64,000 nucleotides of DNA from Eledone cirrhosa (GCA_964016885.1 OZ024752.1:36642001-36706000), one strand, 5' to 3'; counted from the stretch's first letter, positions 262-55,500 are shown. Program-made: numbers and translations. The notes: generated by a model not told the origin, from the sequence alone.

Positions 262-440
262 CATTAGTGCGGCAGGAACTCGAGTCCGGGTACCTTATAG
301 GCACCCGTTTTACGTGTGTTGTGTTGAGGCAAATAACTATGTGTATACTCTGGTAATGTATCTTACATTGCCCACTGAGTGCGCTGAGATACAACCGGTA
401 CTGACATTGATAAATATGCTGGGTCCATCAACCCTTATTA
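262..440 (+). mobile_element. Family F: TA-flanked 3' end of putative PLE-type element (second copy 30311-30453)
   Basis: Near-identical copy at 30311-30453; both end in (TA)n. Carries the TACTC-TGG...CCA-CT-GAGTG bulged hairpin (346-381) and a hammerhead-like 3' half GGAA-CTCGAG-TC at ~275-286. Confidence 0.6.
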
Positions 441-515
441 TATATATATATATATATATATATATATATATATATATATATATATATATATATATATATA
501 TATATATATATATAT

Positions 516-895
516 GTAAAAGTTCTATTTAAATATTTTTATAACTGATATAAAGCACTCAACAAATAATTGGAGTAAAAATACGATATTAATAAATGGA
601 AACTATATTTATAAAACCATATTTATTTCATTATACATATTTCAAGGACACCAAGTTAAATTATGGTGTGCTTTCATCAGATAAAATATAATATAGAGCA
701 GTTTTAGAGCAGTTTTAGAGCTTCCAACAGTAATTGTTGCATTCTTTAAGGGTATGTCAATATTTATCTATAAAACTGCTCTATATTATATTTTATCCGA
801 TGAAAGCACACCATAATTTAACTTGGTGTCCTTGAAATATGTATAATGAAATAAATATGGTTTTATAAATATAGTTTCCATTTGTTAATATCGTA
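516..895 (-). mobile_element. Family C fold-back element (long tailed arm left, short arm right) in (TA)n
   Basis: Inverted arms ~583-710 and ~770-895. Hammerhead motif on minus at 626-686 and a CCGATGA variant on plus at 791-851. TA tracts on both sides. Confidence 0.8.
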
Positions 896-1544
896 TATAT
901 ATATATATATATATATATATATATATATATATATATATACATATATATATATATATATATGTGTATATATATATATATATGTATATATATATATATATAT
1001 ATATATATATATATATATATATATATATATATATATATATATATATATATATATATATATATATATATGTATATATATATATATATATGTGTATATATAT
1101 ATATATATATATATTTAAAATACAATATGTTGAAAAGGTAACATATTGTATTTTAAGGAGCTCAGGATTTCCTCTCATTTGAGCACATTATTTACAGGGA
1201 ATGGCGAGAGTCGATGGGTCCGTTAATTTATCGTGATATATATATATATATATTTATAGGTATATATATATATATAGGTGTATATATATATATATATATA
1301 TATATATATATATATATATATATATATATATATATATATATATATATATATAGGTATATACGTATACTATTATTATTAGCACAAATTAAAACTTTAAGCT
1401 ACCAATTTATGCGGGATCATCTAAAAAGAGTAAGAGAGGAATATATATATATATATATATATATATATATATATATATATATATATATATATATATATAT
1501 ATATATATATATATATATATATATATAAATATATATATATATAT

Positions 1545-1737
1545 AACGAAGGAAATGTGGTAAGGAACCAGGTGGACCATAACGCACCAAAGTACTCAAT
1601 ACTTAGGGTAGTAGAGTGGGTAATAGGAACAAGTAAGACCCCGACGGCTGAGCTCAAGCCGTTTCGACGGCTAATTCTGTACTGAATTAGCCGTCGAAAC
1701 GGCTTGAGCTCAGCCGTCGAGGTCTTACTTGTTCCTA
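1545..1737 (-). mobile_element. Family A fold-back element in (TA)n
   Basis: ~75-nt tail, then a palindrome TAGGAAC...GGCTAATTC / GAATTAGCC...GTTCCTA. At least 9 copies in the window. Confidence 0.85.
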
Positions 1738-2486
1738 TATATATATATGTGTGTGTGTGTGTGTGTATATATATATATATATATATATATATATATATAT
1801 ATATATATATATATATATATATATATATATATATATATATATATATAGAGAGAGAGAGAGAGAGAGAGAGAGAGAGAGAGAGAGAGAAAGAGAGAGGAGG
1901 GATCTAAGTCGAGGAAGAGGGACGGAATACTGAAATACGTCTGATTTTAGACGAGACAATGGAAGCAGGGATAAACATGACTTTCTTCAGAACATTTTTA
2001 GTGTAAATCAAAGGAAATGGGTTTATCTGGAAATTGTAGCCGGATCAGCGTGAAGCTGTCTTCCTGAGAACTTATTTCTTTTCTGTGACATTTATCATGA
2101 AATTTACTTAAACTAGTTTCTGAGAAAAATATCTAGTTCAGTATTTCCCAAAATAGACAATATTGACTCCTCGGGGGGTAATTGGGGCTCCTCAGGGCAT
2201 CGCGTGAACTTTTAAGTCAAAACCTGACCTTTGTATAAGAAATGAAAATTTGACATAAAATACATAAAATAGGTAAAATATTATAATGAAATAAAAGTTG
2301 CTTATACAGATTTCTATATTTCTATATTTCTATATAATCGGTTTCTATTTTGTGTTTTATATCCTGTTTACTGATTTATTTATTTACTTATTTATTTTTA
2401 TACATATCTTGGGTTGATGTCCTAAAACGGATCTAGTTAATATTTTATTGAAAGAAAGGACGGCGGATTTGATGAAATCATAATAT

Positions 2487-2765
2487 AATTGTTTCTACTT
2501 TTGGGACAAGGCCAGCAATTACCCAGTACATTACTGGTACTTTATTTTATCGACCCCGTAAGGATGAAAGGCAAGTTAACCTCGGCGAGATTTGAACTCA
2601 GAATGGCAAGGGCCATACCTCTATGCGTCAAAGCATGGCGTCCGACTCTCTACCGATACTGCCATAGTAATAATAATTGTTTCTACGTTAGGCACAAGGC
2701 CAGCAATTACCCAGTGTATTACTGGTACTTTATTTTATCGACCCCCGTAAGGATGAAAGGCAAAG
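2487..2765 (-). mobile_element. Two tandem copies (one partial) of a tRNA-derived SINE with a Meta-like core
   Basis: Minus strand has B-box GAGTTCAAAT, core GCCTTTCATCCTTACGGGGTCGATAAAATAAAGTACCAG and tail GTAGAAACAATT. Many copies in the window. Confidence 0.8.
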
Positions 2766-2975
2766 ATCCCGTTAAGGGTGAAAGCAGCGATTCTTTCTTT
2801 AAACTTTAATCTGTTATTTTAATATATATATATATTTATATATGGTGCGTGTGTTTCTTATTGGCAACATGACCCTCCCAAAGTATAACAATATCGGTTT
2901 CAACACACGATTTCAGATAAAGAATCTTGCTAAACAAATTCAGAAACGAAATATATATATATATATATATATATA

Positions 2976-3162
2976 CGTTATTCCGGGTTGAATCGGAGGT
3001 AACCACAGTAAGTAAGGTACTCAATACATTGCAGAGTATAAAAGTTTTAATATAGATGAGATTCTACAGGACTAGAACTGTTTCATTCTTTAGAAATTCC
3101 TGATGATTTCTAAAGAATGAAACAGTTCTAGTCCTGTAGAATCTCATCTATATTAAAACTTA
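2976..3162 (-). mobile_element. Family B fold-back element in (TA)n
   Basis: Tail plus inverted arms folding at ~3096. Plus-strand hammerhead ATTC-CTGATGA-...-GAAACAG...CTGTA-GAAT at 3096-3142. Confidence 0.85.
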
Positions 3163-52922: not shown

Positions 52923-53189
52923 GTAAGAAATCAATATTATGATGGTATCAATGTCGTAGTGGCGAGTACTGTAGAACCATAGAGACAATATATCTAGGGT
53001 TAGAATCTGCGATGCCGTTCTGTTTCTTTGTTGAAATCTCATTTTGCTTCGTTTACGTCACAACTGCTTCTGGGCAAAGCTAAAGATCTTGTTTAACCCC
53101 TTCACCCACCCCACCCATAAAAATACAAAGATTATTTCCTTCTGAAAAAAATACCCCCCCGACATTTTCAGTGCTGTCATAGCATGAGG

Positions 53190-53630
53190 AGGACAGCGAA
53201 TTGACAGAGTCGTTAGAACGTCAGATAGAATGCCTTGTGGTATTCGTATCAGTTCTCTGTTCTCTGTGTTCAAATCCCGCCGAAGTCAACTTTGCCTTTC
53301 ATCCATTCAAGGTCGATAAAAAAAGTACCCGTTAAGTACTAGGGTCGATTCTTCCTCTATATCTCTTGCTTACTCCCCCCTCCCCCTCTCTCTCTCTCTC
53401 TCTGTGTCTCTCTCTCTCTCTCTCTCTCTCTCTCTCTCTCTCTCTCTCTCTCTCTCTCTCTCTCTCTTCTACTTTCTATCCCTTCCCTGGAAGAAATCTA
53501 CTGTATTCAAATCTGGAGAGGGGATGAGCTCCACCAGGTTTTAAAATTATGCTTGAAATGCCCTTGAAACCTTGAAACGTCGCATGTCAATACGGCGCCC
53601 CAACGACTCCCTCAAGAGTTACGGGACCAG
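53190..53630 (+). mobile_element. Composite SINE with internal (CT)n and a distinct 3' part
   Basis: SINE head and core, (CT)n, then CTGGAAG...CTCCACCAGGTTTTAAAA...CGACTCCCTC. Copies at 58430-58780 and 60748-61365. Confidence 0.7.
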
Positions 53631-53964
53631 GCATGCATATAATGCTATTAGACTAAAAGAAACGGTATACCACGTGACTAAATTATTTACTATATTTAAC
53701 TACGCCTTTCTATATTCCGTGTTGAAATTTAATCGATGTTGTCTTCTTTGCCTTTCATCTTTTTCTGAAGGTCAACGAAATAAGTGCCTGTAAAATATTG
53801 GAATCGATTCAGGCGAAAAATAAATATCCTTTTCTCCTTGCAAGCACCAATAATATCGATACTTGATTTCGACGTCTATTTAATAATTTGACATTACATT
53901 CTTTATCTCAACGAAATATCCTAATTATTTTATTGCATTATCACGTCCCTTTAAATTCCAATAT

Positions 53965-54560
53965 AGTGGCTGCCAACTCGTTTTCGAGTACGGCCACTAC
54001 TTTATATCCATGTAGGAGAACTCCTACCGATGCGCTGAACGAGTGTGACTTTTTAGTCCAGCCAGCGACTTGAAAACTCTGGTACAAACACTACACCTGT
54101 GACAATTATTGACACATAGTGCTGGGCCCATGGTACCATGTAACCACAAGTGCAGAGAGATCTCCAGATATAAAGCAATGCCGTGAAGCTTTTATAGTGA
54201 GCAAAGGCACTGCATAAAGCCAGTCCCACTCTCTTAACCAAGATGATATTTACCAAAAAGAAGAACATGTCAACATCATTGGATACCATCAGAATTGCAG
54301 GTGTTATATCAGAATTTTCCTTCTCCTAGAATTCTGCATTGACAAAGGCTAAGGAGTCATCTCTCCCGGTGATTTTGGATGGCCATTGACTCTTAAGAGC
54401 TCCTTTGCCCTTTGACAGGTTTTGTTTTTAGTCCTGCAGGATGTCCAACGTCACCCTCCTCACCAAGAAACCTTGGCGGGGTTGCCAGTTTAGTCGCCAA
54501 CGACCCGACCACGAGACAGGTTGTACTGGGATACATGTTACCAGTAGCACCAACTGGTGA
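53965..54560 (-). mobile_element. Locally duplicated interspersed repeat, possibly a LINE 5' UTR or derivative
   Basis: Near-identical copy at 56037-56555 and a diverged copy at ~55510-56020 interrupted by a SINE (55583-55699). Confidence 0.65.
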
Positions 54561-54626
54561 CCTGACATAAATTCCAATATACATACATACATACATACAT
54601 ACATATATACATATATATATATAAAT

Positions 54627-55173
54627 CCGAAATCAACAAGATCCGCTTGTAGTGAATGCAAGTTAAGTTTCTGGAAGATCGATCTGTTGATTTACTTTCT
54701 CAACAGGCTTTCGTTCTGACACCAGTCCGGTTGTGAGGGCTCATGTTACTCCAAAGGGAGCTAATAATTTGACCGCCATAAACCGGGGTTTATGGCGGTC
54801 AAATTCAAATTATGAGTAATGGAATAAGTTCCATACACAAACTGAATATATATATATATATATATATATATATATATATATATATATATATATATATATA
54901 TATATATATATATATATATATATATTTAATAACCGTCTGGTTGAGTGCTTAATTCAGTTTGTGTATGGAACTTATTCCATTGCTCATAATTTGAATTTGA
55001 CCGCCATAAACCCCGGTTTATGGCGGTCAAATTTTCAGCTCCCTTTGGAATAACATGAGCCCTCACAACCGGACTGGTGTCAGAACGAAAGCCTGTTGAG
55101 AAAGTAAATCCACAGATCGATCTTCCAGAAACTTAACTTGCATTCACTGCAAGCGGATCTTGTTGATTTCCGA
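54627..55173. repeat. ~220-bp inverted repeat around a TA tract; each arm holds a 40-bp palindrome
   Basis: 54627-54847 is the reverse complement of 54951-55173. AATTTGACCGCCATAAACC-GG-GGTTTATGGCGGTCAAATT at ~54766-54805. Confidence 0.85.
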
Positions 55174-55339
55174 TTTACAGAAACCTAACTGAGATATTGC
55201 AAAATTTCGAAGTGATGGTCCAGGTTTGTTATATATATATATATATATATATATATATATATATATATATATATATATATATATATATATATATATATAA
55301 ATATATATACTTATATATATATGTATATATGTATGTATT

Positions 55340-55500
55340 TTTTCTCGCGAGTCAGTTCTTTCGTTGCTTTGGACCCCGCGCGGCTGAATTACCGGGTCGC
55401 TATGTTCAATTTGCAAAGCCCTTTAAACTGTATGTTATTACTCTGAGGTCCTATACCTTGTCGAGTGCTTGGCTGCACTGCTGAATGCATTCGTCGGCAT
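55340..55500 (+). mobile_element. Family L: TA-terminated tail fragment with the conserved bulged hairpin
   Basis: TACTC-TGAGGT-cctat-ACCTTG-TC-GAGTG at 55439-55467, ~30 nt before (TA)n. Confidence 0.5.

Follow-up and report, generated by a model that had tools for sequence, protein, structure and literature searches.

A duplicated bulged hairpin at the insertion ends of Hydra-clade Penelope-like elements in Eledone cirrhosa

A 64-kb window of the AT-rich, 3.0-Gb genome of Eledone cirrhosa (the window being the whole stretch of DNA analysed, 64,000 nucleotides (nt), OZ024752.1:36642001-36706000 of GCA_964016885.1) is crowded with short palindromes sitting in (TA)n tracts. An original prediction made from this sequence described a hairpin, TACTC/GAGTR with a 2-nt 3′ bulge, in the tails of eight of the repeat families involved. 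Our analysis suggests that this hairpin is a cis-element of Hydra-clade Penelope-like elements (PLEs), present twice between the hammerhead ribozyme and the ATG of the open reading frame (ORF), and that each copy, bound by protein, likely acts as a ruler placing the start of reverse transcription about 7 nt 5′ of its base, a reading to which we assign a probability of roughly 0.7. Judged by sequence, the hairpin is a real, clade-wide RNA element within a known transposon family, and its position and covariation point to protein binding and priming.

Hairpins and the two ends of insertions

In every family with enough copies, the 3′ ends of the palindrome arms are bimodal, lying either just 5′ of the hairpin (site 1, the short arms) or 60–130 nt past the hairpin start (site 2, the tailed arms, with tails of 70–145 nt). 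Short arms had been described as stopping near the hairpin in families A–D, and they do so, 6–10 nt 5′ of it, as do a few arms of families E, J and f10. When each TA-ended arm was compared with the natural read-through sequence, the interval of possible breakpoints included position −7 or −8 in 97 of 116 ends from six families, and −7 in 82 of the 116, at both sites. Of 57 head-to-head pairs, 55 combine a short with a tailed arm, which suggests two protomers on one RNA. Among the 55 pairs, the arm reaching further 5′ was the short one in 17 and the tailed one in 13, while the arms were equal within 3 nt in 25. At two loci (L157 and L173) the ORF sits in the short-ended arm, and in L157 that arm contains the whole ORF. 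The truncation points lie 5′ of the predicted ribozyme cut, so the template would have been uncut or religated, as for PAc, a Poseidon element considered below.

Tandem copies have the order hammerhead, site 1, hairpin 1, site 2, hairpin 2, ATG, reverse transcriptase (RT) and GIY-YIG. Hairpin 2 was predicted from one tandem copy of family C, in which it follows the tailed end by about 10 nt and precedes the ATG by 22 nt, and was then found genome-wide just past the tailed end, at 370 places for family A, 253 for D, 55 for E and 79 for M, the reversed-pattern control giving 0 for each. Hairpin 2 and the ATG are seen in four tandem copies of family C (L157, L237, L241, L242), and hairpin 2 in 16 of 19 matches of family J, whose read-through copies continue into a Hydra-type ORF start. 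The distance past hairpin 1 is 78 nt in family A (read-through copy L235), 90 nt in D and 99 nt in E; the ORF starts 20–63 nt past hairpin 2 in families A, C, D, E and J, and both hairpins lie within about 170 nt 5′ of the ATG. The family B pattern for hairpin 2 gave one rearranged match; family B has 76 read-through copies, and all eight of those examined carry a reduced GCAC-N5-GTGC hairpin after site 2, with the ATG about 30 nt further on. No Hydra-type ORF start was found within 200 nt past hairpin 2 of family M (L217–L222), for which a longer 5′ untranslated region (UTR), an intron or a non-autonomous family is possible. Mini-tandems of the junction alone, comprising the hairpins, the tail and a few codons, occur at L185, L191 and G000:C2:216011836-216012393; by sequence they resemble non-autonomous, retrozyme-like derivatives that would retain both start signals.

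The motif and the elements that carry it

The nine hairpins quoted in the original prediction match in sequence, coordinates and strand when re-read, and the motif is not a property of shuffled sequence: in 29,530 unmasked bases there are 15 matches against a mean of 0.44 (maximum 3) in 200 dinucleotide shuffles, and the TACTC version gives 8 against 0.1. A geometry of ACTC, at least 3 base pairs (bp), a 2-nt 3′ bulge and GAGT matched 32 places in the window, one of which (54020-54044) is a different repeat that is off the consensus. The only other geometries with more than six matches were the opposite-strand reading of the same hairpin (24) and two shifted registers (17 and 14). A chance motif was ruled out by the shuffle counts, the reversed-pattern controls for hairpin 2 and the covariation score given below. 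Copies of one family are not independent, yet relaxed and motif-blind searches place the hairpin in at least 14 distinct families of the window rather than the eight first named; six had been missed, as had the second hairpin copy. In 663 kb made up of the window and 60 further stretches, which are not a random sample, there are 125 descriptor matches. Rfam 15 gave no match above the gathering threshold in the window, which is weak evidence, as minimal hammerheads were missed too, and two scans of viral contigs found no relative.

Thirty-six hairpins from different families and sites give the consensus (A/T-rich)-RCUC-YR..YR-UH-GAGY-RC; row N1, the anchor of which matched another place, was left out of this table and included in the covariation alignment. 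The first bulge base is T in 35 of the 36; 35 have a pyrimidine at the start of the first upper pair, 35 have A or T at position −5, and 27 have C at position +2. Of the conservation originally described, the 2-nt bulge is indeed fixed and the upper stem does covary (U-A/C-G at its first pair). The leading T of TACTC is present in only 17 of the 36, and the lower stem, thought to be fixed, covaries among ACTC/GAGT, GCTC/GAGC, GTTC/GAAC (from a motif-blind search) and GCAC/GTGC (from loci fetched by protein), with A-U/G-C changes at position 1, C-G/U-A at position 2 and U-A/A-U at position 3. In the alignment, four of five pairs have changes on both sides, and none of 500 shuffles reaches the score. 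On the sense strand G-U pairs occur 13 times and A-C once. The loop varies, as had been noted, from 5 to about 60 nt, which argues for a folded strand. The family D junction forms both lower stems (z = −2.55).

The eight families had been called unrelated, but A–E and J all lead into Hydra-clade ORFs, and their protein motifs, hammerheads and targets identify them, at the level of sequence, as ends of Hydra-clade PLEs. When followed upstream, families A, C and E led into inverted pairs of kilobase size that contain ORFs, and families B, D and J run into the same type of N-terminus. The element has a single ORF with RT motifs, including YRDD, followed by a C-terminal GIY-YIG-like motif; intact ORFs encode 717 amino acids (aa) in family A, 740–742 aa in C and 809 aa in D, and family E has a weak Pfam GIY-YIG match near the C-terminus (E = 0.0043, below the cut-off). 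RW[KRT] is found in families A, B, C, D, E and J, SDKT (DKT rather than DKG) in A, C and D, and a CxCX5C linker with CxxC and CxH around conserved E and N residues, and no CCHH, in A, C, D and E. Descriptors identified predicted type I hammerheads upstream of hairpin 1, at 25–60 nt, in families B, C, D, E, G and P, and identified none for F, J and L. The microsatellite that follows tail-complete matches is nearly always TA (A, 88/89; B, 42/42; C, 35/36; D, 11/11; E, 20/20). Intact ORFs sit in tandem arrays with periods of 3531 (A), about 3870 (C) and about 3895 (D), and these units of 3.5–3.9 kb exceed, because of their long 3′ UTRs, the size of less than 3 kb that PMC8557442, in its account of the clade, qualifies with 'generally'; the clade is highly amplified. 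The clade is also widespread: among 8000 proteins scored, 2049 were homologues at E ≤ 1e-30, with full-length identity of 38–43% to most of the 120 listed of the 2049, whereas identity of the family A protein to a CCHH-type PLE of the same genome is only 21%.

Several assignments were tried and rejected on the way to the ORFs. An identity with Naiad, first taken from the RT motifs, was dropped because the endonuclease is C-terminal, CCHH is absent and hammerheads are present. A Pfam GIY-YIG search of the genome for master copies returned CCHH-type PLEs instead, and an upstream query from L098 did not lead to family D. What looked like a connection of family M with the L091 ORF, and of family E with the L101 RT, came from adjacent insertions, and the L154 ORF, which differs from that of L235, likely belongs to another Hydra family nested in a family A pair. 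UUGAnAA in place of CUGAnGA, a compensated U3/A8 pair, occurs in hammerhead-like motifs of family A (Table 1) and of a CCHH-type PLE (L091, about 6410–6450); this variant is known from natural hammerheads, and standard descriptors would miss it.

A motif-blind search for asymmetric palindromes between TA tracts, in a sample enriched for loci fetched with families A–E, gave 121 distinct cases in 39 clusters. By eye, 18 clusters have the hairpin opening the tail, 2 are doubtful, 12 lack it (mostly with tails of 33–68 nt), and the remaining 7 are copies of short interspersed elements (SINEs), simple repeats or unclear. Family K (window 2840-2950 and 29750-29950; L098:6560-6890) has a hammerhead and two 3′ ends about 57 nt apart, with no such hairpin. 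A CCHH-type PLE (L086, L087, L091, L094, L095, L097) has a 1.2-kb 3′ UTR and, at a similar offset from its short end, an ACTC with no GAGY partner, possibly a diverged signal to judge from its sequence.

The hairpin also occurs in other hosts. Thirteen of 23 loci from metagenome and genome collections have it beside a Hydra-type ORF or hammerhead, seven or eight of them with two copies before the ATG. The two hairpins are 59–67 nt apart in L175–L177 (one family), L244, L245, L252 and L249 (first copy with one mismatch); L174, in which the second copy holds an N, probably has two as well. L247 is a short-plus-tailed palindrome whose short end fits −8/−7 against L253, and for the tailed ends of L245 and L252 the breakpoint interval includes −7. 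The other ten loci are fragments, ribozyme-ended, short-site-ended or, in L254, without a hairpin behind the ribozyme. Fourteen contigs of GTDB bacterial metagenome-assembled genomes (L243–L256) encode Hydra-clade PLEs and are most likely animal host DNA carried into the assemblies. Among six Hydra consensi in File S7 of PMC8557442, read by eye, three have a clean hairpin (Hydra-2_Amil and Hydra-2_Ajap in the tail, Hydra-1_Ajap twice at the 5′ end), Hydra-1_Crog has an imperfect one, and Hydra-1_Amil and Hydra-1_Obim have none. By these sequences, the hairpin with compensatory changes recurs in Hydra-clade elements of other hosts, including coral and sea-cucumber consensi.

Table 1. Hairpins, hammerheads and palindromes of the window (OP, original prediction)
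Feature	Position	Strand	Remarks
Family A insertion	29968..30165	+	palindrome in (TA)n, arms head to head; left arm short, right arm tailed
Family A hairpin 1	30088..30111	+	short arms stop 6–9 nt 5′ of hairpin
Family A hammerhead-like motif	52026..52109	+	U3/A8 core variant; predicted cut after 52109; by eye
Family B asymmetric palindrome	30768..30973	+	
Family B hairpin 1	30907..30925	+	
Family B type I hammerhead	30796..30834	-	short-arm copy
Family C asymmetric palindrome	49567..50030	+	
Family C type I hammerhead	49832..49881	+	palindromic stem III
Family C hairpin 1	49939..49958	+	
Family C hairpin 1, second quoted copy	10521..10540	+	hammerhead 10413-10461
Family D asymmetric palindrome	41156..41482	-	short-arm hammerhead 41374-41428 (+)
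Family D hairpin 1	41215..41239	-	
Family E hairpin 1	25050..25089	-	hammerhead 25151-25195 (-)
Family F hairpin 1	347..380	+	second copy 30361-30394
Family J hairpin 1	25933..25971	-	
Family L hairpin 1	55440..55466	+	tail shortened in window copy
Family M hairpin 1	78..137	+	long loop; missed by OP
Family f11 hairpin 1	30643..30670	+	missed by OP
Family N GCTC/GAGC hairpin	31497..31518	+	missed by OP
Family G GCTC/GAGC hairpin	48493..48513	-	hammerhead 48558-48613 (-); missed by OP
Family O long-loop hairpin	50195..50263	-	opens tail of long palindrome; missed by OP
Family P GTTC/GAAC hairpin	51491..51526	+	compensatory; hammerhead 51337-51408; found motif-blind; missed by OP

A long palindrome at window 47770-48200 has a 127-nt tail that may open with a wobble variant of the hairpin, ACTT..TC-GAGT. 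The window also holds a reverse-transcriptase-like coding stretch (12390-13740, plus strand) of a long interspersed element with a short tandem-repeat end, which we take to be RTE-like, and a frequent, at times palindromic SINE-like repeat (2500-2640, 27080-27330, 35960-36130, 60210-60390 and 61430-61600), the core of which is presumably of mollusc or octopus type. Tandem arrays lie at 18133-21200 (42-nt unit) and, with longer units read by eye, at 6480-7200, 42780-43620 and 61940-63750.

Proposed mechanism and competing explanations

We propose that a read-through transcript, continuing from a tandem unit into its neighbour or around a circularised unit, would carry both hairpins, and that the ORF protein, probably in two copies, would bind one hairpin each. 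Its GIY-YIG domain would nick both strands of a (TA)n tract, each nicked 3′ end would pair, over 0–6 nt, with the UA-rich single strand immediately 5′ of a hairpin, and the primed cDNA would run back through the hammerhead into the 3′ UTR; head-to-head joining of the two 5′-truncated cDNAs would follow. Hairpin 1 and the spacer (the 70–145 nt tail) would be part of the arm primed at site 2 and absent from the arm primed at site 1. Without hairpin 2, a copy would have no means of producing new tailed insertions, in keeping with a requirement for tandem masters.

The original prediction had proposed an RNA signal that sets a start or a stop of reverse transcription and so produces the one-sided tail. 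cDNA synthesis runs 3′ to 5′ along RNA, so a hairpin located 3′ of the arm end marks a start; a second copy at the same offset from the tailed end agrees with this, while a stop fits poorly with short arms that often reach further 5′. The association of an RNA-strand signal with the short-arm end and the one-sided tail stands as well, except that the spacing of two hairpins, rather than a single one, would make the tail. In a bolder version, to which we give somewhat less than an even chance, the two operator hairpins would form a portable module of about 100–170 nt that loads a dimeric, telomerase-like RT, each protomer measuring 7 nt and priming one nicked (TA)n strand, so that one RNA would be copied from two origins at once, an arrangement that would have been kept from corals to molluscs.

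A number of observations weigh against hairpins that set start sites. Of the scored ends, 19 of 116 fit neither −7 nor −8, TA microhomology blurs the breakpoints, the 116 include no site-1 end of family E, and 60 arms have no partner within the search distance. The patterns used to find hairpin 2 contain the motif, which leaves read-through copies without hairpin 2 uncounted, and the covariation sets were picked with the motif in mind, so that those figures lean towards it and are upper bounds. The reduced hairpin of family B has neither upper stem nor bulge, yet B makes tailed copies. Many of the hairpins are weak, the short ones having folding energies of −1.3 to −7 kcal/mol; folding does not distinguish the sense from the antisense strand (17 versus 18), and the family A junction folds in shifted registers (z = −0.13). 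In raw counts among all 256 four-base lower stems, ACTC shares only rank 11, ten AT-rich stems being higher. The CCHH-type PLE of the same genome has a 79-nt one-sided tail without such a hairpin, which is therefore not needed for tails in general. Finally, hairpin 2 was not found for families F and L, and 25 loci of each contained neither a read-through copy nor a reliably linked ORF. A candidate for hairpin 2 of family F at L225 was rejected, since it resembles the tail of family N and no ORF follows it, and one L305 read-through copy in the F and L search is ambiguous.

The common −7/−8 register at both sites is predicted equally well if the hairpins direct the element protein or a host nuclease to cut the RNA, or to form its 3′ end, about 7 nt upstream, with ordinary target-primed reverse transcription then beginning at two RNA 3′ termini. 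PMC11167929 describes RNA-seq reads that end at the start sites of PAc, which favors such a cut, although PAc itself starts internally and lengthening of its RNA 3′ end leaves the product unmoved, according to the same text. Because the short-plus-tailed composition of 55 of 57 pairs would require both RNA forms in every event, we regard this explanation as unlikely. Still less probable is that a single cDNA, primed at the tailed end, folds back and that hairpin 1, as cDNA, halts the return synthesis to leave a short arm. The two arms cover nearly the same sequence and, by eye, have subfamily variants in common, and PMC3846280 takes palindromic junctions as self-priming; self-priming of a related kind, on an antisense template, has been put forward for Penelope elements of rotifers. 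However, 17 of 55 pairs, some of which could be mimicked by later deletions at palindrome centers, have a short arm that extends further 5′ than the tailed one, the short arm of L157 holds a whole ORF, and a stop would leave unexplained why the tailed end keeps the same offset to a second hairpin that lies outside the insertion.

The location of both hairpins so close to the ATG is also what would be expected of operators in the 5′ UTR that serve translational repression, or capture of the RNA, by the ORF protein, in which case the ends would merely follow AU-rich flanks, and the A/T at position −5 in 35 of 36 hairpins is in keeping with this. A/T-rich stretches are present everywhere in the elements, yet ends occur at two places only, with one offset across families whose tails measure 70–145 nt, making this explanation improbable, marginally more so than a folded-back cDNA; an operator role could coexist with a start-setting role. 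We consider it very improbable that the signal acts as double-stranded DNA rather than RNA, with the endonuclease domain binding an RCTC...GAGY inverted repeat. According to a report cited in PMC11167929, the endonuclease of Drosophila Penelope needs the tail in order to recognize plasmid DNA, but a spacer of 10 to more than 60 nt that keeps upper-stem pairing, the 2-nt bulge and G-U pairs of the RNA strand is difficult to reconcile with a DNA site, as are targets that consist of plain (TA)n tracts without the motif.

Relation to known systems

The Hydra clade, its hammerheads, its TA targeting and its inverted truncated partners with a one-sided tail are already known from the accounts in PMC8557442 and PMC3846280. 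The description of the clade by Craig et al. (2021, PMC8557442) shares with the present elements the single ORF of RT and C-terminal GIY-YIG, the R-W-K/R, DKT and CxCX5C motifs, CxxC/CxH around E and N without CCHH, the type I hammerhead, (TA)n targets, an inverted 5′-truncated partner and a one-sided tail. Its passages on the clade make no mention of the hairpin, its duplication or the register, and it ascribes PLE tails, in general 30–40 bp, to endonuclease resolution, whereas tails here are 70–145 nt. In open-access PMC and bioRxiv texts (Repbase reports and subscription papers lying outside this scope), we found no description of the hairpin, its duplication, the 7-nt register or the rule of one site per arm.

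A functional parallel in these texts is the Poseidon element PAc of Anolis (Frangieh et al., 2024, PMC11167929), which has two internal start sites bounding the tail in vitro and cuts and extends both target strands; AT-rich targets, an uncleaved RNA substrate and a predicted dimer are further points of likeness, as judged from the text of that paper, although Poseidon is another clade than Hydra. The type I minimal hammerheads of PLEs and non-LTR (long terminal repeat) retrozymes treated in PMC4209133 are the same ribozyme as that found upstream of hairpin 1 here. A circular or tandem RNA template, proposed for hammerhead retroelements in PMC4209133 and bioRxiv 10.64898/2026.07.22.740005, would supply both hairpins. 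Unlike the retrozymes, the present insertions are truncated autonomous elements rather than tandem retrozymes, and the hairpin is a separate element without a catalytic core.

If transcribed, the palindromes, which are dense in this genome, would form long double-stranded RNA. Such RNA might be relevant to A-to-I hyper-editing, a process associated in PMC5625713 with palindromic repeats and with lizard Penelope. The origin of PLE inverted repeats with a one-sided tail has been a puzzle for two decades; in 2024 one element was shown to initiate internally, with no RNA determinant defined. The hairpin is a compact motif, covarying and clade-wide, that keeps a fixed distance to both ends; intact tandem masters exist (717-aa ORF, L235:657-2807), and the hairpin can serve as a marker for annotating Hydra-clade ends and masters.

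Stems bound by an RT set where templating begins or ends in two other systems, the template-boundary element of telomerase and the epsilon of hepadnaviruses, the latter a bulged stem-loop. In telomerase the element is located 5′ of the template and brings synthesis to a halt, and in the case of epsilon priming is from the protein, within the bulge, whereas the hairpin described here lies 3′ of a DNA-primed start and is duplicated; the likeness to either is one of functional analogy only. PLE RTs are, according to PMC8557442, the sister group of telomerase RT, and the hairpin may provide a handle on template register in this sister group. If the twin-origin version of the mechanism is true, the module would be the start-setting equivalent of the boundary that limits the telomerase template, and any RNA upstream of it could be directed into TA repeats.

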